Shown here one piece after another: positions 28,503 to 47,338 of a DNA stretch of 64,000 bases. Source of the DNA: Brevundimonas sp. (lineage in GTDB: Bacteria; Pseudomonadota; Alphaproteobacteria; Caulobacterales; Caulobacteraceae); the NCBI GenBank assembly GCA_030693575.1, contig JAUYAG010000190.1, positions 21,538 through 85,537 on the forward strand, read 5' to 3'. The position numbers and the translations under genes were made by a program. How positions within the stretch are numbered: the stretch's first letter is position 1; every line of letters starts with the position of its first letter. The notes below the pieces were generated by a model, which worked only from the letters and a program-made list of their open reading frames with translations, did not search any database and was not told the DNA's origin.

Positions 28503-28506
28503 ACCC

Positions 28507-29379
28507 TTGGCGAAGACAGCGAAAACAGGCGAACGCTCCAATCCCGGCCAGCACGACGGCTTCCTTGGCTACAGGAATTTCCGTTGGGCCTGGCGCGCCG
28601 GCGCGCTGTGCGTGATCGCCATCGCGGCCTATTTCCTGATCGACGCCGAGCCGCGTCCCAACGGCGGCAGCGTCTTCGGCTATGTGGCCGGGACGATCGC
28701 GGCACTGCTGGTGCTCTGGCTGACCCTGCTGGGCCTGCGAAAGCGCGCCATCACCTCGGGCGACTGGTCGCTGAAGGCCTGGGTGTCGGCCCATGTCTAT
28801 CTGGGCCTGGCCGTGATGGTCGTCGCGACCCTGCATTCGGGCTTCCAGTTCGGCTGGAACGTCCACACCCTGGCCTACGGCATGATGGTGCTGGTGGTTG
28901 TCTCCGGCCTGTTCGGCATCACCGTCTATGCCCTCCTCCCCCGCTACCTCAGCCGCAACCGCGGCGAGACCACCCAGAAGCAGATGCTGGAGACGCTCAA
29001 GGCGCTGGACCGCCAGATCAATGAGGCGGCCCAGCCGCTGTCCGAGGCGCAGGCCCGGGTGGTGCAGATGTCGCTCGATGACAGCCGGGTCGGCGGCCAC
29101 CTGTGGCGGCGGCTGTCCGGCGGACGCGGCGGCTGCGGCAACCGACGCGCCCTGTCGCGCCTGAAGGGCCTGCGTCGTCAGGCGACGGACGTCGAACTGC
29201 AGATGCTCGACCGGATCGAGGAACTGCTGCAGCGCAAGGCTGCCGCCCTCGCCCAGGTCCGTCGCCACCTGCAGATCCGGGCCTGGCTGAGCGTCTGGCT
29301 GGCGGTCCATGTGCCGGCCACCATCGCGCTCATCGCCGCGATCACCGCCCATGTCTTCAGCGTCTTCATCTACTGGTGA
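28507..29379 (+). CDS. His-rich 5-TM membrane protein (candidate b-haem / transmembrane electron carrier)
   Basis: TTG start 4 nt after the upstream stop. Four N-terminal TM helices, a soluble loop of about 110 aa, and a fifth TM. His residues sit inside the TM segments (SAHVYL, ATLHSG, VHTLAY, AVHVP, TAHVF). Confidence 0.65.
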   Translation: MAKTAKTGERSNPGQHDGFLGYRNFRWAWRAGALCVIAIAAYFLIDAEPRPNGGSVFGYVAGTIAALLVLWLTLLGLRKRAITSGDWSLKAWVSAHVYLGLAVMVVATLHSGFQFGWNVHTLAYGMMVLVVVSGLFGITVYALLPRYLSRNRGETTQKQMLETLKALDRQINEAAQPLSEAQARVVQMSLDDSRVGGHLWRRLSGGRGGCGNRRALSRLKGLRRQATDVELQMLDRIEELLQRKAAALAQVRRHLQIRAWLSVWLAVHVPATIALIAAITAHVFSVFIYW

Positions 29380-29386
29380 TGGCCCG

Positions 29387-31237
29387 ATGACCCTTGTCCT
29401 TCGCCAGGTGACACGCCGCGTAAGCGGGGCCGAAATCGTCCGGGAAAAGGTCCTGCCGACCGACGTCGCGCGCATCGGACGCGGCGCGGACTGCGAGATC
29501 CGTCTGCCCGATCTGGCGGTCAGCCTGCACCACGCCACCCTGACCCTGACCGGACCGGGACAGGTCAGCGTCGTCTCCGCCGGGCGGGAGCCGTTCGGCG
29601 TCGACGGCCGGTTCGTCACCCGGACCGACATCGACGTCAGCCGGGCCCCGCGTCTGACCTTCGGCGATCACATCCTGACGCTGGCGGCCGGCGACGGCGG
29701 CCGCATCCTGATCAACCTCGCCGCCTCGGAACCGGCCGAGGGCGAGTCCTCGTCCGGTGTTCCGGCGGGCGGCGTCATCCCCAAGGCCCGCATCTTCGGC
29801 CGTCGACGGATCGCCTGGACCCTGGGTCTGGGGATCGTTGCGCTCTGCCTGCTCTGGCCGCTGGCGGCCTTCCACGGCCACCTGAAGGCCCGGATCGATC
29901 CGGACCAGCAGTGGTCAACCGGCCCACTGTCGTCCGCCCACGCCTTCCTGGAAGACGACTGCCAGGCCTGCCACCAGGAAGCCTTCGTCGCGGTGACCGA
30001 TGCGTCCTGCAAGTCCTGCCATGCCGGCGATCAGACCCCGGCCATGATGGCCGCCGCCGCAACCTCCGTGCGCCGGGCCGGCTCGCCGGACACGCTGTCG
30101 TTTGTCAGGGACCACGCGCCTCGCGGCCGGATTCTCTGGGGCGCCCCGCCGCCGGCAGGGATCACCGGACAGACCACCGCCTGGTTTCGGCGCGCCTTCA
30201 ATCTGCCCGAGCAGCGCTGCGCCAGCTGCCACGTCGAACACGTCGCCAACCCGGTCGCCGGCAGACCGCCCGAGCCGATTCCGACGCTGACACCCACCCA
30301 GACCTGCATCCAGTGCCATACGGGCCTGACCCATCGGCTGAAGGACACCGACCTGGCCGATGCGCCGTCCTGGGCCCGCCATCCGAATTTCCGCCCCACC
30401 CTGCCCGGCCCCGCCGGTCTGACCCGGGTGTCACTGGACAGCCGCCCGCGCGAGGCGTCCGGCCTGACCTTCCCGCACGATCTGCACCTGTCGCCCGGCG
30501 GCGGCCCGGCGCGCATGGCCCAGACCCTGGGAGGGCGCGGCTATGGCGCGGCCCTGACCTGCGCCAGCTGTCACCGGCCCGATGCGGACCAGACGGGCTT
30601 CGCGCCCATCCAGATGGAGCGCGACTGCGCCAGCTGCCACTCCCTGTCGTTCGCCACGCCCGGCGGCGTCCGCCAGTTGCCGCACGGCGAGCCGGGCCAG
30701 GTGGTCGCCGCCCTGATGGCCTGGCAGGGACGCGGCCCCGTCGCCGGTGGCGCAACCTCGCGGCGGCGGCCCGGCGAGGCCGGTGAAGGCGGACCCGGCC
30801 CGGGCGGCTCGCCCACGGGCGCCAGCGCGGTCAACACCGTGGGCGGCGCCTTTGGCCCGCGCGGAGCCTGTTTCGACTGTCACACCATCTTCCGGACACC
30901 GACCATCCGCTTCACGCCGGTCCGGCTGCCCGGCGACTTCCTGAGCCGCGGGGCCTTTGACCACAGCGTCCGCGAACACCGCGTCGACCGTCAGGGCCAG
31001 CCGTCCTGCGCCCAGTGCCACGCCGCGGCGACATCGGGCTCAGCGACCGATCTGCTGCTTCCGTCGGTCACCGAATGCGTCGAATGCCATGGCCAGACAA
31101 CGGCTCGCTCGCCGACTCCGGCGCCGGCCAATTGCGAGACCTGCCACAGCTTCCATGCGCCGTCGCACCCGACGCCGAAGCCGCCCCGCCCGAACTTCAG
31201 CGCACTGCCGGCGCCAAGGGCTCAGACCACACCATAG
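29387..31237 (+). CDS. FHA domain - TM anchor - decahaem c-type cytochrome
   Basis: Start MTLVLRQV... at 29387. The N-terminus is FHA-like (ARIGRGADCEIRLPDLAVSLHHATL...FGVDGRFV). A TM helix follows (IAWTLGLGIVALCLLWPLAAF). Then 10 CXXCH motifs, counted by eye: CQACH, CKSCH, CASCH, CIQCH, CASCH, CASCH, CFDCH, CAQCH, CVECH, CETCH. Confidence 0.8.
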   Translation: MTLVLRQVTRRVSGAEIVREKVLPTDVARIGRGADCEIRLPDLAVSLHHATLTLTGPGQVSVVSAGREPFGVDGRFVTRTDIDVSRAPRLTFGDHILTLAAGDGGRILINLAASEPAEGESSSGVPAGGVIPKARIFGRRRIAWTLGLGIVALCLLWPLAAFHGHLKARIDPDQQWSTGPLSSAHAFLEDDCQACHQEAFVAVTDASCKSCHAGDQTPAMMAAAATSVRRAGSPDTLSFVRDHAPRGRILWGAPPPAGITGQTTAWFRRAFNLPEQRCASCHVEHVANPVAGRPPEPIPTLTPTQTCIQCHTGLTHRLKDTDLADAPSWARHPNFRPTLPGPAGLTRVSLDSRPREASGLTFPHDLHLSPGGGPARMAQTLGGRGYGAALTCASCHRPDADQTGFAPIQMERDCASCHSLSFATPGGVRQLPHGEPGQVVAALMAWQGRGPVAGGATSRRRPGEAGEGGPGPGGSPTGASAVNTVGGAFGPRGACFDCHTIFRTPTIRFTPVRLPGDFLSRGAFDHSVREHRVDRQGQPSCAQCHAAATSGSATDLLLPSVTECVECHGQTTARSPTPAPANCETCHSFHAPSHPTPKPPRPNFSALPAPRAQTTP

Positions 31238-32580
31238 GCCAGCATCGCCTCGGCGACCTTCTTGAAGCCCGCGATATTGGCACCGCGCACATAGTCGATG
31301 CGCTGGGTCCCGGCCACGCCGCCGTATTCCACACAGCGCTGATGAATCCCGCGCATGATGTCGATCAGGTGCTGCTGGAGCTCGGCCTCCTTCCAGGCGA
31401 TCCGCCCCGAGTTCTGGCTCATCTCCAGACCGGACACCGCCACGCCGCCGGCGTTGGCGGCCTTGCCGGGCGCATACAGAATGCCCGCCGCCTTGAACAC
31501 GTGCACCCCCTCCAGATCGGTCGGCATATTGGCGCCCTCGGACACCGCCATGCAGCCGTTCGCCACCAGCGTCCGGGCGTCCGCACCGTTCAGCTCATTC
31601 TGGGTCGCGCAGGGCAGGACGACGTTGCAGGGCACCGCCCACGGCCGCTGGCCCTCGTGGTAGGTGGCCCCGCGGAACTCGGTGACATAGTCCGATATCC
31701 GCCCGCGCCGCCGGGTCTTGTGCACCTTGACCCAGTCGATCCTGGCCTGGTCGATGCCGTCGGGATCGTGGATGAAGCCCTGCGAATCCGACAGGGTCAG
31801 GACCTTGCCGCCCAGTTGCACGATCTTCTCGGCCGCATGGGTCGCGACATTGCCCGAGCCGGAGATCACGGCCGTCTTTCCCGCCACGTCCTGGCCGATA
31901 TGGCCCAGCATCTCCTTGAGGAAATAGACCGCCCCGTATCCCGTCGCCTCGGTGCGGATCAGGCTGCCACCGTAGGACAGGCCCTTGCCGGTCAGCACGC
32001 CGGTGAACTGGTTGGTGATCCGCTTGTACTGACCGAACATATAGCCGATCTCACGCCCGCCCACGCCGATGTCGCCGGCCGGGACATCGATGTCCGCGCC
32101 GACGTGGCGGTACAGCTCGGTCATGAACGACTGGCAGAACCGCATCACCTCGTGATCCGACTTGCCCTTCGGATTGAAGTTCGATCCGCCCTTGCCGCCG
32201 CCCATCGGCAGGCCTGTCAGACTGTTCTTGAACGTCTGCTCGAAGGCGAGAAATTTGAGCACGCTCTCGGTCACGCTCGGATGGAAGCGGATGCCGCCCT
32301 TGTAGGGCCCGATGGCGTTGTTGTTCTGCACCCGCCAGCCCCGCTGGACGCGGATATTGCCCTTGTCGTCCTCCCAGCAGACCCGGAAGCTGATCACCCG
32401 GTCCGGCTCCGCGATGCGGCGCAGGATCTGGTAGTGGTGATACTCCTCCTTGTCCTGGATGAAGTCGAAGATGTCTTCGGCCACTTCCTGAACCGCCTGG
32501 ACGAACTCGTCCTGGCCGGGATTCCGCTTCTTCACGCCCTCGATGAACCGGGGCAGGTCGACATGGTCCGAGACGGCCAT
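31222..32580 (-). CDS. gdhA: NADP-specific glutamate dehydrogenase
   Basis: 452 aa with GLPMGGGKGGSNFNPKG and the overall Glu/Leu/Phe/Val dehydrogenase pattern. Its 3' end overlaps the convergent cytochrome gene by 16 nt. Confidence 0.9.
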   Translation of the reverse strand: MAVSDHVDLPRFIEGVKKRNPGQDEFVQAVQEVAEDIFDFIQDKEEYHHYQILRRIAEPDRVISFRVCWEDDKGNIRVQRGWRVQNNNAIGPYKGGIRFHPSVTESVLKFLAFEQTFKNSLTGLPMGGGKGGSNFNPKGKSDHEVMRFCQSFMTELYRHVGADIDVPAGDIGVGGREIGYMFGQYKRITNQFTGVLTGKGLSYGGSLIRTEATGYGAVYFLKEMLGHIGQDVAGKTAVISGSGNVATHAAEKIVQLGGKVLTLSDSQGFIHDPDGIDQARIDWVKVHKTRRRGRISDYVTEFRGATYHEGQRPWAVPCNVVLPCATQNELNGADARTLVANGCMAVSEGANMPTDLEGVHVFKAAGILYAPGKAANAGGVAVSGLEMSQNSGRIAWKEAELQQHLIDIMRGIHQRCVEYGGVAGTQRIDYVRGANIAGFKKVAEAMLAYGVV

Positions 32581-32600
32581 GGCCGCTCCTCGCTTTCAGG

Positions 32601-33521
32601 TCATGGAAGGGGATTCGGAGGGCCGTTGCCGCAGCCGCCGCCGCCCTGACTGGGGCCGCCGGGGCTCTGGATCGGGCCGCCCGCCTCGCAGCCAACAGAC
32701 GGCTCGATCGGATCAAGGCCGGGCCCGCGATCGCTGAAGAAGAGGTCGCCCGCGTCAAGGCTCGCGGACAGGACATCGCCCGCGCCGGAATCGCTGTTCG
32801 ACGTCGGCGCGGCCCTGAGCAGGGCGCTCAGCCGGGACGAGGCCTCGTCCGACAGTTCGAACGGCCCGAAGGTTCCGCCCGCCCAGGCGAACATCGCCAG
32901 GCCCGGGCGTTCGAGGGTGAACATCGTATCCCCGCTGGTGACGTCGATCGCGCCGGGCGTATCGAAGCCCGCGCCCCGCGGACCGGGTCCGCGCAGAACG
33001 ATCAGGGTGGCGTCGTCGGGTGAACCGCTGAAGGCCGGCAGGCCGGGATGGCCGGCCAGCACGGACAGGGCGTCAGGGCCGACGACCGCCTCGACCACCG
33101 TGCCACGCACGCCGATAGACGAGACAGGTGTCCGCACGGCGCCGGGCCGGGCTCCGCCGCGGCCGGACACGAAGCGGAACGCGCCGCGCGCGACCGAGGC
33201 TGACGCCCCGCCCGCCCGCCGGTCGGTATCGATCACGAAGCGGTCAATGGTCACCCGCGCGTTCGAGCCGACCGTGAAGATCGACTGGTCCCGCAGCAGG
33301 ATCTGCAACTGGCTCTGCGCGCCGCTGACGAAGACGTCGCCCGTGCGGACCTGCCCTCTCAGGGCTGCGGGCCGCAGCGCGCTTTCGCCGACGGGCTGGG
33401 TGCGGACGCTGTTGCGGATGGCGGCGTTGACGCCGACGGCCTCCTGGGCCTGGACGAACACAGGCGCAGACAGTGCGCAGGCCAGGGCGGCGACGGCGGC
33501 AAAGGTGCGAACCGGGATCAT
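32601..33521 (-). CDS. Secreted FecR-domain protein
   Basis: I chose the start MIPVRTFAAVAALACALSAPVFVQAQEA (GGAGAG 6 nt upstream). The FecR-like segment is GDVFVSGAQSQLQILLRDQSIFTVGSNARVTIDRFV. The stop lies only 20 nt before the gdhA ATG. Confidence 0.7.
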   Translation of the reverse strand: MIPVRTFAAVAALACALSAPVFVQAQEAVGVNAAIRNSVRTQPVGESALRPAALRGQVRTGDVFVSGAQSQLQILLRDQSIFTVGSNARVTIDRFVIDTDRRAGGASASVARGAFRFVSGRGGARPGAVRTPVSSIGVRGTVVEAVVGPDALSVLAGHPGLPAFSGSPDDATLIVLRGPGPRGAGFDTPGAIDVTSGDTMFTLERPGLAMFAWAGGTFGPFELSDEASSRLSALLRAAPTSNSDSGAGDVLSASLDAGDLFFSDRGPGLDPIEPSVGCEAGGPIQSPGGPSQGGGGCGNGPPNPLP

Positions 33522-33532
33522 GGTCATCTCTC

Positions 33533-34870
33533 CTAGTTGGCCGCGCCGAAGCGCCACGTCAGGCGCAGTTCAGCGCCCCAGCTGTCATAGTCCGCGAGCG
33601 GCGCGAGGGAGTCCCGCGCGCCATAGGTCAGCGCGCCCTCGACGCCCACATCCTGCCGCCAGTCACCCGTCGCTCCGGCCGCGGTGAAGGCGCTGAACGG
33701 GGCGCCGACCGCGACGCGCGCCCAGCTGCGGGTGTCTTCTCGGGCCGGCGCGGCGAAACCGATGAAGACCGGGTCGGGCGCATCATATTCCAGCCACTGC
33801 ATGCCGCCGGAAATCGCCAGATACTGGCCGCGGCGGCTGCTGGTGTCGTACCGCGCCTGAACGCCGGGACCCGAATAGCCGAAGGGTTCGTAGTCGGCCT
33901 GCTTGTCCTGCCAGCCAGCGGAGACGCCGAAGCTGGTGCGGGCGTCCAGGCGGTGGGTCATGCCGACGTTGAAATCATAGCGCCAGCCATCGCGGTCTCC
34001 ACCGATCAACAGGGCGAGGGCGTCGACGCCCGGCTCATCGAACGACTGGTTCACCGCCTCGCCCGAGATGGAGAGGGTCGTCGCGTTGCTGGTCCGCCAC
34101 CGGGCCTGGGCCTTCAGGCCGACTTCCCGCATGTAGGGATCATCAAGGAGGTCCAGCGCGCGCGCCACGGCGCTGACATTCCAGGAGTTCAGCCGGCCCG
34201 TATAGGACAGTCCGGCTTCCAGGTCCCCACGCCGCACATTCCCGTCGATGTCGTCAAAGGTCGAACGGTCGTAGCCGCCGATCGAGCCGAAGGCCGCATA
34301 GCCGGCGGCACCGTCGAGGTCGTGGGCGATGTTGAGGCGCGCGGCGAACACGGCCGCCCCACCCTCTTCGCTGACCGGCGGGCTGAAGATCGAGTCGAAC
34401 TGGGTCGTCAGCGCGCCCGCGGCGTCGTCCTCGTAGGTGACGGCGGCCGAAGCCGTGCCGCTGAACCGGGTCGTCGACCGGCTGCGCGCGATCCGTGCGC
34501 GATAGCGGGTCGCCTCCGCCCGCTGCAGGGGCGTCAGGGTCACCGGCTCCAGCAGGTCCAGCTGGTCCCGTGCGCCCTGCAGGTCATCGAGGCGGAAAAG
34601 GACGACGGCGTACAGCAATCGAGCCCCATGGCGGTTCGGGTCCGCGATCAGCACACGCTCCAGGGCGCCGGCCGCCCCGTTGAGGTCGCCGGCATCCGCC
34701 GCCTGGCGGGCGTAGGCCAGATTGAGATCGACATCGTCCGGCGCGGCCAGCACGGCGTCGAAGTCCTGGGCCGCCGCGACCCCGACCGTCGCCGCTGACA
34801 ATCCCACCACGGCCGAAACCAGCAACCCGGCCCGGAAGGCCGCCGCTGAACGAGACGCTGGACGCTTCAT
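33533..34870 (-). CDS. Outer-membrane protein: N-terminal TPR-like region + C-terminal beta-barrel (Slam/DUF560- or NsrA-like)
   Basis: Signal peptide ending VAAAQD and TPR-like helices (NLAYARQAADAGDLNGAAGALERVLIADPNRHGARLLYAVVLF). An alternating-strand C-terminal half ends in LTWRFGAAN. Confidence 0.6.
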   Translation of the reverse strand: MKRPASRSAAAFRAGLLVSAVVGLSAATVGVAAAQDFDAVLAAPDDVDLNLAYARQAADAGDLNGAAGALERVLIADPNRHGARLLYAVVLFRLDDLQGARDQLDLLEPVTLTPLQRAEATRYRARIARSRSTTRFSGTASAAVTYEDDAAGALTTQFDSIFSPPVSEEGGAAVFAARLNIAHDLDGAAGYAAFGSIGGYDRSTFDDIDGNVRRGDLEAGLSYTGRLNSWNVSAVARALDLLDDPYMREVGLKAQARWRTSNATTLSISGEAVNQSFDEPGVDALALLIGGDRDGWRYDFNVGMTHRLDARTSFGVSAGWQDKQADYEPFGYSGPGVQARYDTSSRRGQYLAISGGMQWLEYDAPDPVFIGFAAPAREDTRSWARVAVGAPFSAFTAAGATGDWRQDVGVEGALTYGARDSLAPLADYDSWGAELRLTWRFGAAN

Positions 34871-34898
34871 GTATTCCCCCAACCGCTTGCAGATTGCC

Positions 34899-34915
34899 CG
34901 GGATAGTCTATCCCG
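34899..34915. promoter_or_regulatory. Perfect 17-bp palindrome CGGGATA-GTC-TATCCCG in the OMP / cyclase divergent promoter region
   Basis: Read directly. It lies 29 nt from the OMP ATG (34870) and 85 nt from the cyclase ATG (35000). Confidence 0.45.
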
Positions 34916-34999
34916 AACTGCGGAGCGATCAGGCTAACATCGTTCCGCGAGAAGCGCATGAACTAATCTGATAGTGCTTTTTCCGAGTGGGGCGGACGC

Positions 35000-37285
35000 A
35001 TGGGGGCGGAGCCTGAGACCGAGCGATTGAAGGAGATCGGGTCGCGCCTCGCGCGCTCCAGCCTTTCGCTTACGCGATACATCGCAACGGCCGGCCCTGG
35101 TCTGGTGGTGGGCTTGCTGCTGCTGATACTGCATATATTCCAGCCGCCGTTCGTCGGCAGCATCAGCAATCTGGTCTTCGACACCTATCAGCGCGCCTGG
35201 CCGCGTCCGTACGAGGACGCCGGGGTCCGGGTCGTCGACATCGATGACGAGAGCATCCGCCGTCTCGGCCAGTGGCCATGGCCGCGCACGGATGTCGTCC
35301 GCCTGACAGACGCTCTCACCGAGGCCGGCGCAGCGGCCATCGCCTTCGACATTGTCTTCTCCGAGCCGGACCGGACGTCGCCCGCTCGCGCCGTCGAAAT
35401 CCTGCGGCAGAACCCCGAGGCGCGCGGCGACTATGCCGAGATCGCCGCCATGACTGACCATGATGAACTGCTGGGCCAGGCCATGGGACGGGGCCCAACG
35501 GTCACCGGCTATTTCCTCACGGAGGAAGCCAACACCGCCCGGCCGGCCGAGCACGCGGGGGTCGCCGTTTCGGGGACGCCGCCGCTGGGCGTCCTGCGGG
35601 AATACAACGGTGCCATCGTCAGCCTGCCGGTGATCGGTGATCGCGCGGCGGGAGCCGGGTCTGTCAGCCTGGACGCGGGCCGGGACGACATGATCCGGGC
35701 GGTGCCGCTCATCGCCAATCTGGACGGCCAGATCATTCCCTCGTTGTCACTCGAGGCGCTCAGGGTCGCCCAGGACGCCGGCGCCGTTCTGGTCCGCAGC
35801 AGCGACGGCAGCGGCGAATGGGGTGGCGGTCCGGTCACCACCGTGCTTGCCGTCAAGACCGGCGACCTGGAGGTCCCGACCACCGACGTCGGCGAACTGT
35901 GGATGCACTACACCGCGCCCCATCCGGAGCGGATCGTGCCCGCCTGGCGGATCCTCCAGGGGGACCTGCCGGAGGCCGAGATGCGACGGCTGTTCGAGGG
36001 GCAGATCGTCTTCATCGGCACGGGTGCGATCGGCCTGCGGGACATCCGCTCAACCCCTACCCAGCAAGGCGAGCTCGGCGTCGTGATCCACGCCCAGGCG
36101 GCCGAGCAGATGATCCTCGGCAAGTTCCTCACGCGGCCCGACTGGGCTCCGGGCGCAGAGCGGATGCTCATGGTGGCGCTCTGTCTGCTGATCGCCCTCT
36201 CGGCTCCCGCGCTCGGCGCCCTGCGCGGCGGGGTGCTGGCCACGGCCGCACTGGGCGGCGTGCTGGCCGGATCGTGGCTGGCCTTCAGAAACAGCGGCGT
36301 GCTGCTGGAACCCATCTTCCCGGCGCTGGGCGTGGTCTCCGTCTACATCGCCATCACCGCCGTCTCCTTCTACCGGGAGGAGCGGGCGCGGAGTCACATC
36401 CACAACGCCTTCGACCGCTATCTGTCGCCGGAGCTCGTCGACCGGATCGCCCGCGATCCCGGCCAGCTGGAGCTCGGCGGCGAAGTGCGTCAGATGACGG
36501 TGCTGTTCAGCGACGTCCGGGGCTTCTCCCGCATCTCTGAACGCTTCGGGCCGCAGGAACTGATCGGTTTCCTCATCAACCTGCTGACGCCGATGACCGA
36601 CGTGCTCCTGGCCCGCAAGGCGACCATCGACAAATACATCGGCGACGCCGTTCTGGCCTTCTGGAACGCGCCACTCGACGACCCCGAGCACGAACGGAAC
36701 GCGGCCTTTGCGGCGCTGGAAATGCTCGAGACGCTCAAACGCCTGAACGCCGACAGCGCCCGCGATCCGGCTTGGCCCGGTCAGGTCGCGATCGGCATCG
36801 GCCTGAACACCGGCCCTTGCTGCGTCGGCAACATGGGTTCGCGCCAGCGCCTCAGCTATTCGCTGATCGGCGACACCGTTAACCTCGCCTCGCGTCTGGA
36901 GAGCCTGACCAAGGCCTATGCGGTGAACATCCTCGTCGGCGAGGACCTCGCCGCCCGCCTGCCCGACTTCGCCCTGATCGAACTGGACCTCATCCGCGTC
37001 GTCGGCCGCGACGCGCCCGAGCGCGTCTTCGCCCTGATGGGCCCGCCGGAACTGTCGTCAGACCCCGCCTTCGTTGAAACCGGGACCCGGATGGCCACCG
37101 TCCTCGAGGCGTACCGGTCCCGCGACTGGGCCGGTGCCGAGGCTGCACTGGAGAACCTGCGGGGTGCGGGTACGCTGCCGGGCCTTGAGGGCGTGGCAGC
37201 CATCTACGCCACGCGGGTTGCGGATTTCCGCGAGACCCCGCCGCCCGCCGACTGGGACGGAATCAGCCAGGCGCTGGAGAAATAG
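35000..37285 (+). CDS. CHASE2 sensor domain - class III adenylate/guanylate cyclase
   Basis: N-terminal TM, then a CHASE2-like periplasmic domain (VVDIDDESIRRLGQWPWPR, AFDIVFSEPD). Three or four TM helices follow, then the cyclase catalytic domain (MTVLFSDVRGFSRISE, KYIGDAVLAFWNAP, GLNTGPCCVGNMGS, IGDTVNLASRLES). Confidence 0.85.
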   Translation: MGAEPETERLKEIGSRLARSSLSLTRYIATAGPGLVVGLLLLILHIFQPPFVGSISNLVFDTYQRAWPRPYEDAGVRVVDIDDESIRRLGQWPWPRTDVVRLTDALTEAGAAAIAFDIVFSEPDRTSPARAVEILRQNPEARGDYAEIAAMTDHDELLGQAMGRGPTVTGYFLTEEANTARPAEHAGVAVSGTPPLGVLREYNGAIVSLPVIGDRAAGAGSVSLDAGRDDMIRAVPLIANLDGQIIPSLSLEALRVAQDAGAVLVRSSDGSGEWGGGPVTTVLAVKTGDLEVPTTDVGELWMHYTAPHPERIVPAWRILQGDLPEAEMRRLFEGQIVFIGTGAIGLRDIRSTPTQQGELGVVIHAQAAEQMILGKFLTRPDWAPGAERMLMVALCLLIALSAPALGALRGGVLATAALGGVLAGSWLAFRNSGVLLEPIFPALGVVSVYIAITAVSFYREERARSHIHNAFDRYLSPELVDRIARDPGQLELGGEVRQMTVLFSDVRGFSRISERFGPQELIGFLINLLTPMTDVLLARKATIDKYIGDAVLAFWNAPLDDPEHERNAAFAALEMLETLKRLNADSARDPAWPGQVAIGIGLNTGPCCVGNMGSRQRLSYSLIGDTVNLASRLESLTKAYAVNILVGEDLAARLPDFALIELDLIRVVGRDAPERVFALMGPPELSSDPAFVETGTRMATVLEAYRSRDWAGAEAALENLRGAGTLPGLEGVAAIYATRVADFRETPPPADWDGISQALEK

Positions 37286-37318
37286 GAACGACATGGCTTT
37301 GAACGGGGGGACGGCGTC

Positions 37319-38188
37319 ATGTTGATCGTTCAGATCACCGACATCCATATCGGCTTCGATCAGAAGAGCCGGTTCGAGATGAACAAGAAGCGTTTCCGCC
37401 AGACGGTCCAGGCGGTGACGAAGCTTGACCCGAAGCCCGATCTGATCGTGATCACCGGCGACATCGCCGACAAGGGCGACGTAGCGTCATACGAGTGGTT
37501 TCGTCAGGAAATCCAGCAGCTTTCCCTGCCCATCCTGATGTGTATGGGCAACCATGATTCACGGGCCAGCTTCAGTCAGGTCTTCCCTGATACGGCCCAG
37601 GAGGACGGCTTCATCCAGTATGTCGTCGACGACCATCCCCTGCGGATCGTGGTGGTGGACACGCTGGAGGAAGGCCGCCATGGCGGCGGCTTCTGCGAGA
37701 AGCGCGCGGCCTGGCTGGAGGCCCGCCTGGCCGAGGCGCCGCACCGGCCGACCCTGCTGGTCCTGCATCACCCGCCCATCGACACCGGCATCGAGTGGAT
37801 GACCATCGGCCCGGCCGAACCCTGGGTGCAGAGGTTCACCGACGTGGTCTCGCGCCACGGTCAGGTCGTCGGTGCCCTGTGCGGCCACGTCCACCGCACC
37901 ATCGTCACCTCATGGGCCGGCACGACCCTGACGGTCTGTCCTTCCACCGCCCCGCAGGTGGTGCTGGACCTCAAGCCGATGAACCTGGACCGTCCGGACA
38001 AGCGGCCGATGATCGCCGAGGCGCCGCCGTCGTTCGGCATTCACCGCTGGAACGGCCGCAAGCTGGTCAGCCATTTCACGGCGGTCCAGCGCTACAAGAT
38101 CCTCGCCCGCTATACGCACAAGATGCAGGCCTTCATGAAGCATCTGGCGCAGGAACGTGCCGGGACGGCCGGCCCACACCACCACTAG
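37319..38188 (+). CDS. Class III (CpdA/SpdA/GpdQ-like) metallophosphoesterase, probable cyclic-nucleotide phosphodiesterase
   Basis: Calcineurin-like motifs in order: ITDIHIG, TGDIADKG, GNHD, VLHHPP, GHVH. Confidence 0.75.
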   Translation: MLIVQITDIHIGFDQKSRFEMNKKRFRQTVQAVTKLDPKPDLIVITGDIADKGDVASYEWFRQEIQQLSLPILMCMGNHDSRASFSQVFPDTAQEDGFIQYVVDDHPLRIVVVDTLEEGRHGGGFCEKRAAWLEARLAEAPHRPTLLVLHHPPIDTGIEWMTIGPAEPWVQRFTDVVSRHGQVVGALCGHVHRTIVTSWAGTTLTVCPSTAPQVVLDLKPMNLDRPDKRPMIAEAPPSFGIHRWNGRKLVSHFTAVQRYKILARYTHKMQAFMKHLAQERAGTAGPHHH

Positions 38189-38201
38189 AGCTCGAATATG
38201 G

Positions 38202-41200
38202 CTACTGTCCGCCGGCGGCCGCCAGCCAGCCGTCCAGCGCCGGCCGGTCGCTGACCCGGTACAGCTCGCCCCGATAGTCGAGGAACAGTCGCTCCATCTC
38301 GGTCCTGTTGAACGGCCGCGAGCCGAGGCGGCCGAAGATGGCGATCTGGTGCCCGGTCTCGTCCACGCCGCGGTCGCGGTCCAGCCCTTTGGACAGGGCC
38401 AGGGCCGGCGACGGCGTCCGCGCCCAGGCGATCAGTTCGGGCCGCGGCTCCGGCGAGAAACCGTAGAAATTGCGCTGGCTGTCGGGACTGGTCAGTTGCA
38501 GCACCTTCAGTCCGTTCCGGCCGTCGGCGACATAGGCGAACAGGCTGGCGTTGGTGGAGGCCACGACCACATCCTCGGCGTCGTTCAATTGGCCGTCGAA
38601 GGTCACCCGCTGGTGCAGGCGGGGCTGGCGCGGGTTGGTCACATTGATGATCACCAGCCCCTCGCCCTTTGCGGCGACATAGGCATAGGTCCGCGCGACA
38701 TAGAGTCGGCGGGCATCGCCCAGCGGAACGACGGCACCCTCGACGGCGCGCGGCTCATCCAGCTTTGTCACATCCAGAACCCGCATCCCCTGCGCGTCCG
38801 TGACGAACAGATAGCGGAACTGCAGCGCCGTAGCCCGGACGTCGTCCAGCCGCACCGTGGTGACATGGCGCGGCCGCAGCGGATCATCGAGGTCGACCAC
38901 CACCAGACCGGCGCGGGCGGCGATATAGGCGATGTGGCCCGCCAGGGTGATGTGCCGCGCGCCGTCCAGCACACCGCCGGGGTTCCAGGTCGCGGCGCGG
39001 CGCAGGTTGTTGTTGCGCGGATCGCCGTCGGCGAGGGTGTCGACATTGACCAGGATCAGCCCCTCGCGCGCGTCGGTGACCACGGCATAGCTGTAGATCG
39101 GGTGGAAGGCCTGTTCCTGGTTGGCGGTCCGCATCTCGGCCGTGTTGCGCGTCGGCGCGATGGGCTGGTTGGTCGGCAGGGCCATGCAGGTGGCGTTGCC
39201 GGAGGCCACATGGGTGTCATTGCCCAGCGGCGAGAAGGGTGCCGTCAGGATGCGGTCCGAGACGCCCTTGTTGCCGATCGATGCCACGTCATAGACCCGG
39301 AATCCGCCCCGGCCCTCGGCCACGAACATATATTCCCCGCGCAGCTGCAGGCAGCGCGCCTCACCGCCGGTGCGCTGGAGCGTATTGGCGATTTCCTCGA
39401 CGGATCGCGTATCCCCGCTGCCGCCGGCCTCAAGGTCGAAGGCCTCGCCCCGCGTCCAGTTGATCAGCTCGCGCCCGTTGCGCTCGACGTGCTGGGCGAA
39501 GAAGTCGGGATAGGCATAGCGCTGCAGATAGGAGCCGAACACCGCCTGCGGCTCGTCCCACTCGGTCACCCGCACCGCCTCGATGCCGGACGCCAGCCCG
39601 ACCCAGGCATGCATGCCGACGAAATTGACCGTGTTCGTCCCCAGCATCAGCAACTGGGCCATGATGGCGTTGTTGTCCTCGGCTTCGGAGACGTGACAGT
39701 CGGTGCAGGTCTTGGTCTCGGTGCGCCGGACCGTGTGCGGGAAATGCGGGGCGAAGGCCTGGCTGGAGAAGCCGACCGCCGAGATCGGCGGCTGCTGCAC
39801 ATAGATCCGCTCGCGGTTGATGTTGGTCGAGGACAGGACCAGGGCCGAGGACGAGCGGGCCGGGGCGATCACCCCGCCGCTCGCGGTTCCGTGACGGCCG
39901 AGCTGGAACATGTCGTCGCGCGCCACCTGCGGATTGTAGGTCGCGTAGTTGCGGGTCGTTCCGCCCTCGGCCCGGTGGCTCGTGGCCTGCCAGTTGGCCT
40001 CGACCGGCAGGTGGCAGCCGCCGCAGGATGGCGTCCATGAGGTGTGACAGCTGTAGCAGGCCATCTCCTCGTCATCGTGGGCCAGGTCGGTGGTCGCCAC
40101 GCCGGGCCCCCACGAGAAGCTGGCCTGACCGGGCCGCGACACCGACATCAGCTTGGCCCGCGCTGCCGCCGGATTGAACTCTGGACTGTCCCGATCGACG
40201 GCGTCGCGCACCAGATCGACCTCCCACTCCAGCGTCGGATCGACGATGGAGCGCTGGATCAGCACCCGGCGATTGTCGCGTTCGATCCATTCAAAGCGCC
40301 GCTGGCCGTCGGAATTCCTCAGCAGCGTCAGGTCCGTGCCCTCGGGCGGTGCCGCCGGGCCTGAAGTGCGCAGCGTCGGCAGGGCGCGCGATGTGCCGTG
40401 GCAGTCCTTGCAGCCGATCTCAACGGCCGCCGCCACCTCGCCCATGATCAGGCCCGAGCCGTGACTGTCCTGCGAGAAATGGCAGTCGGCGCACTGCAGG
40501 CCCTTCTCGGCGTGGATGTCCATCATGTGGACGGTGCGGCCCGGATTGGTCCCCGGCGGGACGAACTGGCCCTCCCCTTCCCGGCGCCAGCGCTCGGGAT
40601 CGTCGGGCGAGACGATGCCGCCCTCGGCGTCCAGCAGATTGCCCTCGCGGTCGCGCTTGAACACCCCGCGGAAATTCCAGCCGTGGCCGTGATAGTCGGC
40701 GAACTGGGTGTCGCGCAGGGTCGGATTCAGGTCGTTGACGGCGCGCAGGAAGTCCAGATCAGCCCAGTTGCCGCGCGGCGCGGCACCCTCGGGATTGCGG
40801 TCCAGAACGGCGCGGATTTCCTCGGCGGTCGGGTAGCGCTGCCGCTCCGGCCACATGGTCGGCGCGTCGGACTCATAGTCCCACATCGTGTATCCGAGGT
40901 AGCTGTTCAGGAACATGTTCGGCTGGTGCATGTGGCAGTTCATGCACTGGGACGTGGGGATGGCGCGGGTGAAGGCGTGGCGGATCGGATGGCCCGATTC
41001 CTCGCGGTTGATGGTCGGGTCCACGGTCGCCGTCTGGCCATCCCGCCCGAACTGCGAATAGCCCAGGCTGTGCCGCGGCTCGCGGTCGTTGGCGTAGACC
41101 ACGTGGCATGAGGTGCAGCCCGAGGAGCGGTAGTCGCCGGGCTGGTCATTGGTGCCCATGAACCAGGTGTAGGGGTCGTTCAGGCGGGTCTTGTGGATGT

Positions 41201-42128
41201 TCAGCACCGGCACGGCGATGCGCAGGCCGGTCCCCGGTCCGCGCGACGACTGACGGAAGTCCGGACGGCCCGGCTCCTCCAGCCGCTGGATCTGGCCCGT
41301 CGGACTGGGCAGGCCGATTTCGGGGAACTGGGTGGCGATGTTGCGCCCGCCGCGCTCGAACACCCGGAAGATGTCCCCGGGCGGCGTCACCTGCCAGGTC
41401 GGTATCGGATACAGCACCGGCAGGGCCCCGCGCCGCTGCTCGTCCAGCGTCACCGTCCCGGGCGGCGTGCCGGGGGAAAGCAGCCGCGCGGGCTCGCCTT
41501 CGGGGGTATAGGCCTCGCCGATGATGTAGTTTTTGTAGGGCAGGATACCGTTGTTGTACGAGGCGCCGCCGAAGAACATCGCCCCTGTCGCCATCAGGGA
41601 TCGTTCTGCTCTTTCAATCAGTTCCATGTGACAGTTGCCACAGGACTGACGGGCAACCCGATAATCACCGGGATTCACGAAACGAATGAACTCAGGTGCC
41701 TCGCGGTTGAGCAGGGTGTAGGTCCGCTCGGGATTGGCCGAACTGGGGAAATGCCAACTCCCGGGATAGCGAGGCAAAACGTGAGCTCTATCCCGTACTG
41801 CGCTGTATTCTGATGCTTCTCTGGATGCGCCGGCCGGAGCCATCGCGGTGGCGTCGCCGCCGTGGCAGTCGACGCACCCCAGCACGACCGCCGGCGAAGC
41901 ATGCATGCTCGCGGCGTCCACCGGACTGTGACAACTCACACAACCGACGCTCTTGGCGGCGGCCTGTTCGGGGGTCTGGTTGAGCGGCGCGGGCGGCGCG
42001 GCGACATAGACACGCGCGACAGGCGCCTCATCATCGTCAGCGATCACGGCGGCCGGAGAACCGGCAACGAGGATCGTCAGGACGGATACCGCCCCGATCA
42101 CCAGCCGCTTGCCCCCCCAGGTCCCCAT
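38202..42128 (-). CDS. 1308-aa secreted decahaem c-type cytochrome fused to a C-terminal LVIVD-repeat beta-propeller
   Basis: Signal/anchor KRLVIGAVSVLTILVAGSPAAVIA. There are 10 CXXCH motifs in roughly the first 830 aa: CVSCH, CVDCH, CGNCH, CTSCH, CMNCH, CADCH, CKDCH, CYSCH, CGGCH, CTDCH. The C-terminal approx 450 aa carry LVIVD-type units (GLILVNVDTL, GLVVVDLDDPLRP, GMRVLDVTKLDEP, GLVIINVTNPRQP, GLKVLQLTSP). Confidence 0.85.
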   Translation of the reverse strand: MGTWGGKRLVIGAVSVLTILVAGSPAAVIADDDEAPVARVYVAAPPAPLNQTPEQAAAKSVGCVSCHSPVDAASMHASPAVVLGCVDCHGGDATAMAPAGASREASEYSAVRDRAHVLPRYPGSWHFPSSANPERTYTLLNREAPEFIRFVNPGDYRVARQSCGNCHMELIERAERSLMATGAMFFGGASYNNGILPYKNYIIGEAYTPEGEPARLLSPGTPPGTVTLDEQRRGALPVLYPIPTWQVTPPGDIFRVFERGGRNIATQFPEIGLPSPTGQIQRLEEPGRPDFRQSSRGPGTGLRIAVPVLNIHKTRLNDPYTWFMGTNDQPGDYRSSGCTSCHVVYANDREPRHSLGYSQFGRDGQTATVDPTINREESGHPIRHAFTRAIPTSQCMNCHMHQPNMFLNSYLGYTMWDYESDAPTMWPERQRYPTAEEIRAVLDRNPEGAAPRGNWADLDFLRAVNDLNPTLRDTQFADYHGHGWNFRGVFKRDREGNLLDAEGGIVSPDDPERWRREGEGQFVPPGTNPGRTVHMMDIHAEKGLQCADCHFSQDSHGSGLIMGEVAAAVEIGCKDCHGTSRALPTLRTSGPAAPPEGTDLTLLRNSDGQRRFEWIERDNRRVLIQRSIVDPTLEWEVDLVRDAVDRDSPEFNPAAARAKLMSVSRPGQASFSWGPGVATTDLAHDDEEMACYSCHTSWTPSCGGCHLPVEANWQATSHRAEGGTTRNYATYNPQVARDDMFQLGRHGTASGGVIAPARSSSALVLSSTNINRERIYVQQPPISAVGFSSQAFAPHFPHTVRRTETKTCTDCHVSEAEDNNAIMAQLLMLGTNTVNFVGMHAWVGLASGIEAVRVTEWDEPQAVFGSYLQRYAYPDFFAQHVERNGRELINWTRGEAFDLEAGGSGDTRSVEEIANTLQRTGGEARCLQLRGEYMFVAEGRGGFRVYDVASIGNKGVSDRILTAPFSPLGNDTHVASGNATCMALPTNQPIAPTRNTAEMRTANQEQAFHPIYSYAVVTDAREGLILVNVDTLADGDPRNNNLRRAATWNPGGVLDGARHITLAGHIAYIAARAGLVVVDLDDPLRPRHVTTVRLDDVRATALQFRYLFVTDAQGMRVLDVTKLDEPRAVEGAVVPLGDARRLYVARTYAYVAAKGEGLVIINVTNPRQPRLHQRVTFDGQLNDAEDVVVASTNASLFAYVADGRNGLKVLQLTSPDSQRNFYGFSPEPRPELIAWARTPSPALALSKGLDRDRGVDETGHQIAIFGRLGSRPFNRTEMERLFLDYRGELYRVSDRPALDGWLAAAGGQ

Positions 42129-42135
42129 GCGCCCC

Positions 42136-45944: not shown

Positions 45945-47338
45945 CGCGCGCGCCTCACAGCGGTCGCAACGCCGCCCATGGCGCGGCGGAATTCCTGTGG
46001 CCGATAGCGGTTGGGATCGCGCACGGCGGCATAGGCGCGATCAATCTCGGGCCGCATCGCCCGAACGGCGCCCGCGTCGATCTCGCCCTGGGCGACCAGG
46101 GCGTTCAGCAGGGTGTCGACCGCCATGACCGCCTGCGCACCGCCGGAATAGTCGGTGTATCGCGGTGCCAGCGCCTCCCCGAGCACGTCCTCCAGGATGG
46201 CGAAGGTGTCGGCGCGGCTGAACGGGCTGGAGGCGAAACTCGCCGACAGCTGGCCGGCCGTTCCGGCAAGGCGGCGAGCCGCCTCGACAGCGCCGGCGCG
46301 GTCGGAGCCAAGCGCCTGGTGGAAGGCGCGTGAGTCGGTCTGGAAGCGCTGGGCCAGCGACGCCGGTGCCGTCCTGGCCGCGGCGGCCAGCATGATCATG
46401 TTCTCGTCGTTGAACGGCGGCATGCCCGCGGGGATCGGCCGGCCCGGATTGGCCTCCACCAGCAAGGGGGCGTTCGGCTCGTCCGAAATCGGCCGGTGGC
46501 AGCTGTGGCAGTCGAAGAAATAGAACTCGGGGAAGACACCGTTCCCGCCCCGCTCCGTGTCGCCATAGACCGTCAGGATCCGCTGCAGCGCCACAGCCTG
46601 GCCGATGGCCCACAGCCGGGCGGAATCCATCGTCGCCTTGCGCTGCACATAGTCGGCATCGACATCGTGGTGCTGCTGGAAGGCGGTAAAGAGCTCCAGC
46701 TCGAACGACAGGCGCGGATGTCCGGCGCTCATCATCTCGTGGGTCACGAACTGGTTGGGCTTGTCGCTGCCCCAGTGGCAGTCGAGGCAGACATTGGCCC
46801 GCACCACCGGATCCTCGAGCGGCGTCATGCCCCGCGCCACATTGGCCGCATGACTGACGCCGACGGTATAGTGGCTGGCGATCCAGCCGCCCGACGGTCC
46901 GTGACAGCTCTCGCAGCCGACGCCGTCGGAAACCTGGAACCGGGCACCCCGCGCGGCGGCGGGCTCGGCATGGCAGCCCAGACAGGCGGGGGCGTTCTGG
47001 GCCGGGCCCAGACCCAGCCGGCGGGTGATCCCCTGCGCGCGTGGATAGGTCAGGGTGCGCCAGGCCCGGCTGTGTGATCCGCCGGGACCGGTCGGGTCCT
47101 GCCAGCTGACCAGTTCGTTCTGGCGCACGACGGCCCCGTCGGGTGCCTGACGGCCATGGCAGGTCGATCCGGCACAGGAGGCCACGCCCTCATGGACGCC
47201 CGGTGATGACAACTGGCTCGCGGACGCCCGCGAGGGCAGGACGGTGCCGATCCCGATGCAGAGCGCCAGGAACAGGGCGACGCTCGCCCAGACCGCAACC
47301 GGGCGGATACGACCCACGCTGATCGTCGTCGTTGTCAA
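45941..47338 (-). CDS. Multihaem c-type cytochrome, cytochrome c554-like (4 CXXCH + 1 CX4CH)
   Basis: N-terminal anchor/signal (VAVWASVALFLALCIGIGTVL). Haem motifs: CAGSTCH (variant), CLGCH, CESCH (GVGCESCHGPSGGW, c554-family-like), CLDCH, CHSCH. The start at 47338 is TTG, so the start is uncertain. Confidence 0.75.
   Translation of the reverse strand: MTTTTISVGRIRPVAVWASVALFLALCIGIGTVLPSRASASQLSSPGVHEGVASCAGSTCHGRQAPDGAVVRQNELVSWQDPTGPGGSHSRAWRTLTYPRAQGITRRLGLGPAQNAPACLGCHAEPAAARGARFQVSDGVGCESCHGPSGGWIASHYTVGVSHAANVARGMTPLEDPVVRANVCLDCHWGSDKPNQFVTHEMMSAGHPRLSFELELFTAFQQHHDVDADYVQRKATMDSARLWAIGQAVALQRILTVYGDTERGGNGVFPEFYFFDCHSCHRPISDEPNAPLLVEANPGRPIPAGMPPFNDENMIMLAAAARTAPASLAQRFQTDSRAFHQALGSDRAGAVEAARRLAGTAGQLSASFASSPFSRADTFAILEDVLGEALAPRYTDYSGGAQAVMAVDTLLNALVAQGEIDAGAVRAMRPEIDRAYAAVRDPNRYRPQEFRRAMGGVATAVRRAR

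Follow-up and report, generated by a model that had tools for sequence, protein, structure and literature searches.

We analysed a 64,000-nt stretch of DNA from Brevundimonas sp. (contig JAUYAG010000190.1; GC content ~68%), hereafter the window, around a four-gene cassette that encodes an outer-membrane protein (OMP) with tetratricopeptide repeats (TPRs), a FecR-domain protein, a CHASE2 cyclase, and a class III phosphodiesterase (PDE) and that lies among genes for multihaem cytochromes. We lean towards reading this cassette as a trans-envelope sensor that makes cyclic AMP (cAMP) and is coupled to a multihaem electron-transfer system. With far more assurance, we regard the cassette as functionally tied to the cytochrome cluster that surrounds it. 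Gene integrity, domains and residues, predicted topology and barrel fold, and neighbourhood counts were computed; all interactions, the direction of the signal, the nucleotide made or degraded, and the effect on electron transfer are what we infer.

The cytochrome cluster has two parts (Table 1). Convergent with the PDE gene is a four-gene module for a c554-like tetrahaem protein, an HbpS-like lipoprotein, an outer-membrane barrel, and a large multihaem cytochrome (MHC). On the other side of the cassette is an operon for a redox protein with cyclic-nucleotide monophosphate (cNMP)-binding domains, a membrane protein, and a decahaem cytochrome with an FHA domain. A published cluster of unknown function, ptdABCDEFG, encodes cNMP-binding 4Fe-4S, ferric-reductase-like membrane, decahaem, and tetrahaem proteins together with a porin (bioRxiv 10.1101/2023.11.21.568154). 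By domain and motif content set against that published description, the genes at 26052-31237 match ptdEFG, and the right-hand module, likened by description, resembles ptdA-D in part.

As far as the available sequence reaches, the four-gene module was present in each of 83 barrel-anchored loci, and its 610-aa barrel has >8000 relatives at ~70% identity. Associations were counted in the 37 barrel-anchored loci, not phylogenetically independent, with at least 4 kb of sequence beyond the large cytochrome gene. A PDE homologue lay in range (within 6 kb) in 26 of the 37, the cNMP-redox/membrane/FHA-decahaem operon in 18, and a class III cyclase in 18; OMP and FecR genes were in range in a single locus, a near-identical copy of the window, and 11 loci had no cAMP-related gene in range. 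A PDE of this family occurs, by our own estimate, in one or two copies per genome, and its presence in 26 loci in many arrangements is far beyond chance.

These arrangements extend beyond close relatives. Sphingobium and many metagenome contigs have the order redox protein-membrane protein-FHA cytochrome-PDE, convergent on the module; the PDE gene is the last gene of the redox operon in 18 loci, and in Sphingobium its start abuts the stop of the FHA-cytochrome gene with no gap. Some loci have this order plus a divergent CHASE2 cyclase gene upstream of c554. In three loci (L077, L078, and L079), genes for the membrane protein, FHA cytochrome, CHASE2 cyclase, and PDE follow one another on one strand, with the cyclase gene close behind the cytochrome gene in L078 and L079 and after a gap of ~270 nt in L077, a close Brevundimonas relative without OMP/FecR. 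Glacieibacterium has cyclase-PDE only, Phenylobacterium has PDE-cyclase, and a Novosphingobium locus (L124) has FecR-OMP divergent from cyclase-c554-HbpS-barrel-MHC. On one metagenome contig (L107, 100-15800), genes for the cNMP-redox protein, membrane protein, FHA-decahaem cytochrome, PDE, c554, HbpS, barrel, and MHC all lie on one strand. Five of six sampled cluster cyclases at only 23-35% identity were CHASE2 cyclases. We rejected chance co-location of the cassette and haem genes on the strength of at least six gene orders and of partners with identities down to 23-35%. An earlier note on this DNA, made from its letters alone, had proposed checking whether the cassette and the haem modules are linked in other genomes, and CHASE2 cyclases and the PDE do stand beside the c554-HbpS-barrel-MHC module elsewhere.

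The four cassette genes are real, intact, and arranged as that note described: open reading frame (ORF), Pfam, and NCBIfam results bore out the four ORFs, their domains, and the divergent layout, in which the OMP gene precedes the FecR gene on the minus strand and the cyclase gene precedes the PDE gene on the plus strand. All four ORFs have coding-type GC3 (0.86-0.87) and are kept at 76-98% protein identity in 17 Brevundimonas/Caulobacteraceae loci, including B. denitrificans NBRC 110107. The spacings given in the note were exact, with 33 nt from the cyclase stop to the PDE start and 13 nt from the PDE stop (38188) to the stop (38202) of the convergent 1308-aa cytochrome gene. Since an identical 306-aa protein (P0241; 100% identity) exists in databases, the FecR start is likely at 33521, 11 nt past the OMP stop, giving a protein of 306 aa. 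The note had further placed the cassette as wedged between two multihaem modules, which holds on the right; on the left, gdhA intervenes. This gene is missing at this position in four relatives (L001, L002, L011, and L016), where the cassette abuts the left haem module, and we therefore regard gdhA as a local insertion, a presence/absence polymorphism within the genus. The 3′ end of gdhA overlaps the convergent cytochrome ORF by 16 nt.

Alignment to the structures of Pseudomonas aeruginosa CyaB (3R5G) and Spirulina CyaC (1WC0/1WC1) located all six catalytic residues in the CHASE2 cyclase, namely, the metal-binding D505 and D549, the substrate-specifying K545, S621, and the transition-state residues N628 and R632. 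S621 occupies the Thr position of class IIIb enzymes, and the guanylate cyclase Cya2 (2W01) has Glu at the position of K545. Because K545 and S621 are present, the cyclase is predicted to form cAMP and should be an active class IIIb adenylate cyclase whose product is cAMP and not cGMP. The earlier note had left the choice of nucleotide to such an alignment and had named a catalytically dead cyclase as fatal to its proposal; the residues found are Lys/Ser, not Glu/Cys, and the complete catalytic set speaks against a dead enzyme. The PF05226 CHASE2 match covers residues 40-399, and hydrophobic segments lie at 28-55, 390-408, 411-429, and 439-457. The predicted topology is the standard CHASE2 layout, in which the periplasmic CHASE2 domain lies between one transmembrane (TM) segment and a further three (390-457), with the catalytic domain following at 497-672.

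The local receptor for this cAMP is probably the 816-aa redox protein, as judged from its sequence and gene neighbourhood. Both of its phosphate-binding cassettes are intact (GEVGLISGRPRGAT at 422 and GEMALVDGGRRSAT at 547) and retain the Glu and Arg whose counterparts in CAP and PKA contact the ribose and the phosphate, and they are conserved in distant loci where residues 341-640 are only 50-70% identical. In relatives, the redox-protein gene is co-operonic with the PDE gene or with both the cyclase and PDE genes. The proposal of the earlier note, that the nucleotide acts on this protein post-translationally, thus gains strong support by association, because the PDE gene, and sometimes the cyclase gene, lies inside the redox operon in relatives (as the last gene in the 18 loci above, and in L077-L079), with the binding cassettes intact. 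That note had also held that the only cNMP-receptor domains nearby are those of the redox protein. The window has a second protein with a Pfam cNMP_binding match, a Crp/Fnr-family regulator encoded 27 kb from the cassette and without Fnr-type cysteines; this regulator is not an expected cAMP receptor, and we rejected it as one given NCBIfam scores of 197 bits for Caulobacter FixK versus 34 for CRP. The remaining genes of the window yielded no further cNMP-binding protein. The FixK-like regulator hints at oxygen-responsive regulators encoded nearby.

Downstream of the redox protein, the 290-aa membrane protein has paired histidines consistent with a di-haem-b, ferric-reductase-like electron shuttle. 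The decahaem cytochrome carries its phosphothreonine-binding FHA domain at the cytoplasmic N terminus, ahead of the TM segment, as does its counterpart in Sphingobium (L072). Through this FHA domain, the same electron chain may receive a second input that depends on a Ser/Thr kinase.

The class III motifs of the PDE are all intact (D8xH10, G47D48, G77NHD80, H150H151, and G189HVH192), and the protein is predicted to be a cytoplasmic class III (calcineurin-like) cNMP phosphodiesterase of SpdA/CpdA-like type. Its best NCBIfam models were SpdA (161 bits against a cut-off of 400) and CpdA (109 bits against a cut-off of 225), so that it misses an equivalog-level score for both. Of the earlier description as a CpdA-like class III PDE, the class assignment stands, and the CpdA likeness gives way to scores nearer SpdA.

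In its AlphaFold (AF2) model (pLDDT 79.9), the OMP has helices at residues 36-133, corresponding to the TPR, and 14 strands at 138-445. The OMP itself gave no PF04575 match in Pfam, which returned TPR only, plus TPR_Slam at E = 0.027. PF04575 (SlipAM) was matched by 9 of 18 close relatives (~50% identity; Caulobacter relatives above the gathering score) and by 24 of 52 family representatives (24-46% identity; best E-value, 9e-13) drawn from an exhaustive profile search that yielded 2167 clusters at E <= 0.001; one Omnitrophota member matched PF04575 over its full length at 26 bits. We regard the OMP as a probable divergent member of the Slam/DUF560 family (type XI secretion system [T11SS] type), with a signal peptide, a periplasmic TPR domain, and a predicted 14-strand barrel. 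Foldseek on the OMP model returned the TPR-barrel exporters BcsC, PelB, and PgaA and the 14-strand barrels OmpG, CymA, and FadL, matches that confirm the fold class of the modelled protein, not its family. A profile search of the OMP family against Protein Data Bank (PDB) sequences, which include no Slam structure, gave TPR-level noise only.

In the family alignment, the cleavable signal peptide of the FecR protein is followed by ~240 aa of conserved core, which includes PF04773, and then by a variable, disordered Pro/Gly tail. Pfam found PF04773 only, with no anti-sigma domain and no membrane anchor, and the same alignment revealed no C-terminal 8-strand barrel of T11SS cargo in this protein or in any of its ~300-aa relatives. 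Its AlphaFold model, from an 18-sequence alignment, reached a mean pLDDT of 46.

We examined the company kept by the OMP in 65 OMP-anchored loci (counts not corrected for relatedness). All 17 Brevundimonas orthologues had an adjacent FecR gene and a CHASE2 cyclase gene within 10 kb, as did the single locus of Alphaproteobacterium PA4. Among five Novosphingobium loci, in which the OMP is 29% identical, four had the FecR gene and five the cyclase gene, and the figures for the 10 Elusimicrobia, Omnitrophota, and unclassified loci were 10 and 9, respectively. A set of 20 paralogous Caulobacteraceae pairs (~50% identity) had FecR in 19 cases and no cyclase gene within 10 kb in any, so the OMP/FecR pair can exist without an adjacent cyclase. 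The PDE joins the OMP/FecR/cyclase trio only in Brevundimonas and PA4, and the trio recurs without cytochromes in Alphaproteobacteria, Elusimicrobia, and Omnitrophota. The cassette is thus composite and not one evolutionary unit, given the trio without cytochromes, pairs without cyclase, and the lone OMP/FecR occurrence among the 37 barrel-anchored loci.

Side by side with these counts, we observed that three genomes (among L020, L021, and L025 and the L069 and L070 group; Brevundimonas/Caulobacter) have a second OMP/FecR pair directly upstream of a second c554-HbpS-barrel-MHC module. Other second OMP/FecR pairs adjoin genes for 1600-2400-aa cadherin/FG-GAP/RTX-like proteins. On plasmid pAMI5 of Paracoccus aminophilus (L068, 4452-10097), a TPR-barrel/FecR/CHASE2-cyclase operon is divergent from a gene for a cNMP-binding patatin phospholipase. 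The Paracoccus FecR protein, 655 aa long, contains collagen-like repeats; its C-terminal match to TbpB_B_D/FHBP_C stayed below threshold, with TbpB_B_D at 22 bits for a cut-off of 26.

The trio has a counterpart in Sinorhizobium meliloti. The pSymB ORF directly upstream of cyaK encodes a 1219-aa protein with a FecR domain at residues 85-179, TPRs at ~240-606, and a C-terminal barrel region; this ORF is NsrA, an outer-membrane protein genetically required for CyaK-dependent signalling (PMC7529298). By architectural analogy, not family membership, the OMP and FecR genes are a split, two-gene counterpart of the FecR-TPR-barrel architecture of NsrA. Two genes here stand for the one polypeptide of NsrA, and the adjacency to a CHASE2 cyclase gene is shared. 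The NsrA fusion therefore provides classical evidence that OMP and FecR act together and with the adjacent CHASE2 cyclase, and the S. meliloti analogy drawn in the earlier note proves better than it had claimed, NsrA itself being the FecR+TPR+barrel fusion. Another S. meliloti CHASE2 cyclase gene adjoins a separate FecR-domain gene. Comparison of the OMP profiles (two alignments) and the FecR profile with NsrA by hhalign aligned only TPR/FecR stretches, at 6-19% probability, and left homology of the barrels unsupported. We judge the odds to be slightly on the side of OMP and FecR acting upstream of CHASE2 as its sensor.

These findings suggest the following model. The Slam-like barrel with its TPR arm and the secreted FecR protein would form a surface-to-periplasm relay, a two-gene NsrA, whose target is the CHASE2 domain that the inner-membrane cyclase exposes to the periplasm. 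The cyclase would convert ATP to cAMP, and the class III PDE would reset or insulate the signal. The local cAMP receptor would be the 816-aa flavo-iron-sulfur oxidoreductase with its two cNMP-binding domains. Through it, cAMP may tune electron flow at the protein level along a path from cytoplasmic NAD(P)H/FAD/FeS to the di-haem-b membrane protein, the FHA-decahaem cytochrome, and the outer-membrane module, with the c554/porin/decahaem-LVIVD (ptd-like) module as the putative outer-membrane end. The chain that the earlier note had drawn, from outer-membrane barrel through FecR and CHASE2 to a cyclic nucleotide and the redox protein, is in part supported by the comparative evidence, which favours cAMP, the haem link, and the receptor and disfavours a single unit. 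A more specific form of this model, in which cAMP is an allosteric post-translational gate on the conduit and a Slam-type barrel was recruited together with FecR as a surface sensor in Brevundimonas and Novosphingobium, is a tentative proposal that we consider rather doubtful. The ptd-like module is widespread in Caulobacterales, Sphingomonadales, and marine Alphaproteobacteria.

Several observations weigh against the sensor model. The OMP family is known for secretion, not signalling, and the NsrA barrel has no homology to the OMP barrel detectable by hhalign. The FecR model is too poor, at its mean pLDDT, for any interface test. The 20 paralogous Caulobacteraceae OMP/FecR pairs lack a cyclase within 10 kb, the 11 cytochrome loci noted above lack any cAMP gene in range, and the cNMP-redox operon and OMP/FecR were never observed together outside Brevundimonas. 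Finally, the PDE scores nearer SpdA, an enzyme without 3′,5′-cAMP activity in vitro (PMC4222275).

The main rival explanation, one that the earlier note had not raised, takes OMP and FecR for a type XI (Slam-like) secretion pair. The barrel would export or display on the surface either the FecR protein or the product of another neighbouring gene, for example a cytochrome, a giant adhesin, or the HbpS-like lipoprotein, and the cyclase next to the pair would merely regulate it or be co-regulated with it. The PF04575 matches of 24 of the 52 representatives and of the full-length Omnitrophota member, the 14 strands and TPR arm as predicted for Slam, and the lipoprotein character of the HbpS-like protein with its poly-Gly linker all suit this explanation, as do the weak C-terminal TbpB_B_D/FHBP_C match of the Paracoccus FecR protein, which is a signature of T11SS cargo, and the cyclase-less paralogous pairs beside cadherin/FG-GAP giants or upstream of c554-HbpS-barrel-MHC. 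We nevertheless hold it to be unlikely: the window FecR protein and all its ~300-aa relatives are without the C-terminal 8-strand barrel; the OMP is missing from 36 of 37 loci with the cytochrome module and is therefore not needed to assemble that module; a CHASE2 cyclase accompanies the pair across distant phyla; and NsrA, genetically a signalling component, keeps its FecR domain in the same polypeptide as the TPR and barrel, at the N-terminal, periplasmic end.

Two further alternatives concern the fate of cAMP rather than its source. Transcription might be the only output, with cAMP read, as in S. meliloti or Shewanella, by a Crp/Clr-type regulator encoded elsewhere and the cNMP domains of the 816-aa protein binding something else or being structural. 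The S. meliloti precedent uses Clr, a conserved 15-bp palindrome in the divergent promoter region is a possible operator, and the Paracoccus trio is paired with a different cNMP-binding effector, the patatin, from which it follows that effectors vary between organisms. We give this alternative a low probability, since the 64 kb encode no Crp/Clr-like cAMP receptor (the only Crp-family protein scores as FixK), the PDE and sometimes the cyclase share an operon with the cNMP-binding redox protein, whose phosphate-binding cassettes are kept at 50-70% overall identity, and no copy of the palindrome precedes the cytochrome operons. The PDE, for its part, may be an SpdA-like 2′,3′-cNMP enzyme that insulates the cNMP receptor from RNA-breakdown products, in which case the cassette has no complete make-and-break pair. 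S. meliloti SpdA hydrolyses 2′,3′-cAMP and not 3′,5′-cAMP in vitro (PMC4222275), the PDE of the window scores higher with SpdA than with CpdA, and the cluster includes the PDE more often than any cyclase (26 versus 18 of 37 loci). Both scores fall so far below their equivalog cut-offs that specificity is unreadable from them, and cyclase and PDE genes are adjacent in several independent arrangements; we consider this role a real possibility that the evidence nonetheless disfavours.

The 117-bp region between the OMP and cyclase genes contains a perfect 15-bp palindrome, GGGATAG-T-CTATCCC, at 34900-34914, which is kept in 11 of 12 orthologous loci, and ~20 nt from it a block (GGAACGATGTTAGCC) that is invariant too. 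The palindrome is unique in the window, a search of the remainder having given no match above chance. It is a candidate operator for some regulator. A scan of 31000-38600 for sigma-70 promoters and terminators gave nothing informative, and the intergenic region is without a sigma-70-like site.

Around the cassette, gene calls and neighbours add some detail to the cytochrome cluster. A mechanical 755-aa ORF (42136-44403, minus strand) overlaps the HbpS-like gene by 436 nt; the real start of the barrel is most likely residue 146 (MKVAWPAL..., a signal peptide), which gives the 610-aa protein, and homologues are 570-660 aa long. From its LAGC lipobox, the HbpS-like protein is predicted to be a lipoprotein; a linker of ~25 residues, most of them glycine, comes after the lipobox, and three stretches of the protein are HbpS-like. 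Surface-exposed lipoproteins typically have long flexible linkers. A GspK-like type II secretion gene directly upstream of the c554 gene is kept in L074 and L076, and the left module is flanked by cytochrome c maturation genes. Both findings are in keeping with a multihaem system that is exported. On metagenome contig L107, the eight genes described above are followed by genes for a redoxin, ccmF, and a cytoplasmic GAF-PAS adenylate cyclase that replaces the CHASE2 one. In Sphingobium (L072, 272-6408) and Phenylobacterium (L073, 1-6471), a divergent two-partner-secretion (TPS) set (ShlB/POTRA transporter and TPS-domain giant) and a CHAT-TPR protein precede the module.

Table 1. Features of the window, with positions counted from its first nucleotide
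Feature	Position	Strand	Details
FixK-like Crp/Fnr regulator	4983-5618	-	Pfam cNMP_binding
Cytochrome c maturation genes	21751-25929	-	ccmF, redoxin, CcmH-type TPR
Redox protein, PtdE-like	26052-28502	+	816 aa, cytoplasmic; FAD/NAD(P) disulfide-oxidoreductase, two cNMP-binding, and 4Fe-4S domains (Pfam)
Membrane protein, PtdF-like	28507-29379	+	290 aa; His pairs H96/H110 and H268/H282, i/i+14
FHA-decahaem cytochrome, PtdG-like	29309-31237	+	cytoplasmic FHA, one TM segment, periplasmic part with 10 CXXCH; likely start 29387
gdhA	31222-32580	-	between FecR gene and FHA-decahaem gene
FecR-domain gene	32601-33557	-	318 aa; signal peptide and Pfam FecR, 38 bits
OMP gene	33533-34882	-	449 aa; signal peptide and TPR (Pfam); likely true start ATG 34870
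Divergent intergenic region	34883-34999		117 bp
CHASE2 cyclase gene	35000-37285	+	761 aa; CHASE2 170 bits and Guanylate_cyc 76 bits (Pfam)
PDE gene	37319-38188	+	289 aa; Metallophos domain (Pfam)
Four-gene cytochrome module	38202-47338	-	convergent with PDE gene
Decahaem protein with LVIVD repeats	38202-42128	-	1308 aa; 10 CXXCH; module gene
Outer-membrane barrel	42136-43968	-	610 aa; signal peptide, C-terminal Phe; module gene
HbpS-like lipoprotein	43968-45944	-	module gene
c554-like tetrahaem protein	45941-47338	-	module gene
GspK-like type II secretion gene	47455-48441	-	

A four-gene cluster, the NsrA/CHASE2 pathway, and a ptd-like cluster are already in the literature. Our searches of the literature found no report of the Slam/DUF560 barrel identity, of the split-NsrA relation, or of CHASE2 cyclase and PDE genes embedded repeatedly, at times within an operon, in the cNMP-binding redox/multihaem supercluster, and a search for papers linking DUF560 with NsrA or adenylate cyclase returned none. 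To our knowledge, the ligands and partners of CHASE2 domains are still unknown after twenty years, S. meliloti NsrA being the sole genetic handle. The locus presents the NsrA architecture in split form, possibly with a Slam/DUF560-type barrel, as part of a trio that is kept across phyla, and the trio loci offer simple two-gene systems for tests of the relay. If the more specific form of the model is true, it would give the DUF560 family its first non-secretory role and the CHASE2 domain its first candidate physiological input. Transcription of the ptd-like cluster, for which no function is known, is high in ocean oxygen-deficient zones; CHASE2 cyclase, PDE, and cNMP-binding redox genes as recurrent and sometimes co-operonic parts of it supply a regulatory hypothesis. 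In Shewanella, metal respiration is under cAMP-CRP transcriptional control. The model would differ from such control in that the second messenger gates a respiratory or extracellular electron conduit directly.

Several known systems share parts of this organization. In FecA-FecR-FecI, as here, a periplasmic FecR-type domain stands between an outer-membrane barrel and an inner-membrane signalling component; the FecR protein of the window differs in having a signal peptide and neither an anti-sigma N-domain nor a membrane anchor, its output would be a second messenger, and no ECF sigma factor or TonB-dependent transducer was found among the scanned window genes. A Burkholderia operon likewise encodes a secreted FecR-domain protein next to a CHASE2 sensor, with a gene for a LysM-FecR protein beside one for a CHASE2 histidine kinase (PMC5192318). 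There, in contrast, the output is a histidine kinase/response regulator, LysM replaces the OMP, and cyclic-nucleotide genes are absent (PMC5192318). The Slam/DUF560 proteins (Neisseria Slam1/2, Xenorhabdus NilB, and HrpB) resemble the OMP in their N-terminal periplasmic TPR, in the 14 barrel strands predicted for Slam proteins, and in a partner gene directly downstream. The OMP of the window differs in lying below the Pfam threshold and in having a downstream partner without the 8-strand C-terminal barrel that defines T11SS cargo, and the neighbour kept with its family is a CHASE2 cyclase, whereas that kept with Slam/DUF560 is a TonB-dependent receptor.

In a Campylobacterota cluster, compared by description only, the same four functional elements are grouped as genes for a CHASE2 adenylate cyclase, a PDE, a FecR-domain OMP, and a TPR protein, which have been proposed to act in one pathway and to have spread horizontally to other phyla (PMC9239204). 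In that cluster the FecR domain is reportedly on the OMP and the TPR protein is separate, and neither a cytochrome link nor a receptor was proposed. The S. meliloti pathway (NsrA-CyaK/CyaD1/CyaD2-Clr-SpdA) shares with the cassette an outer-membrane barrel, TPR, and FecR working with CHASE2 adenylate cyclases and a class III PDE at the cyclase locus. NsrA is a single 1219-aa polypeptide with a larger barrel, whereas Brevundimonas has two genes and a Slam-like 14-strand barrel; the S. meliloti output is the transcription factor Clr, whereas Brevundimonas has no Clr nearby and its linked putative receptor is a cNMP-binding redox enzyme; and the biology of the S. meliloti pathway is control of legume infection, not cytochromes. 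On the cytochrome side, the published ptd description makes no mention of a cyclase, PDE, or cAMP (bioRxiv 10.1101/2023.11.21.568154). PtdA is described as a pentahaem protein with a beta-sandwich, which differs from the 10 CXXCH motifs and LVIVD repeats of the large protein of the window, and PtdC as an FAD/NAD(P) oxidoreductase, where the corresponding window gene is HbpS-like. The ptd cluster otherwise comprises the same kinds of protein and occurs in marine Alphaproteobacteria, and TARA contigs are among the matches to the barrel module.

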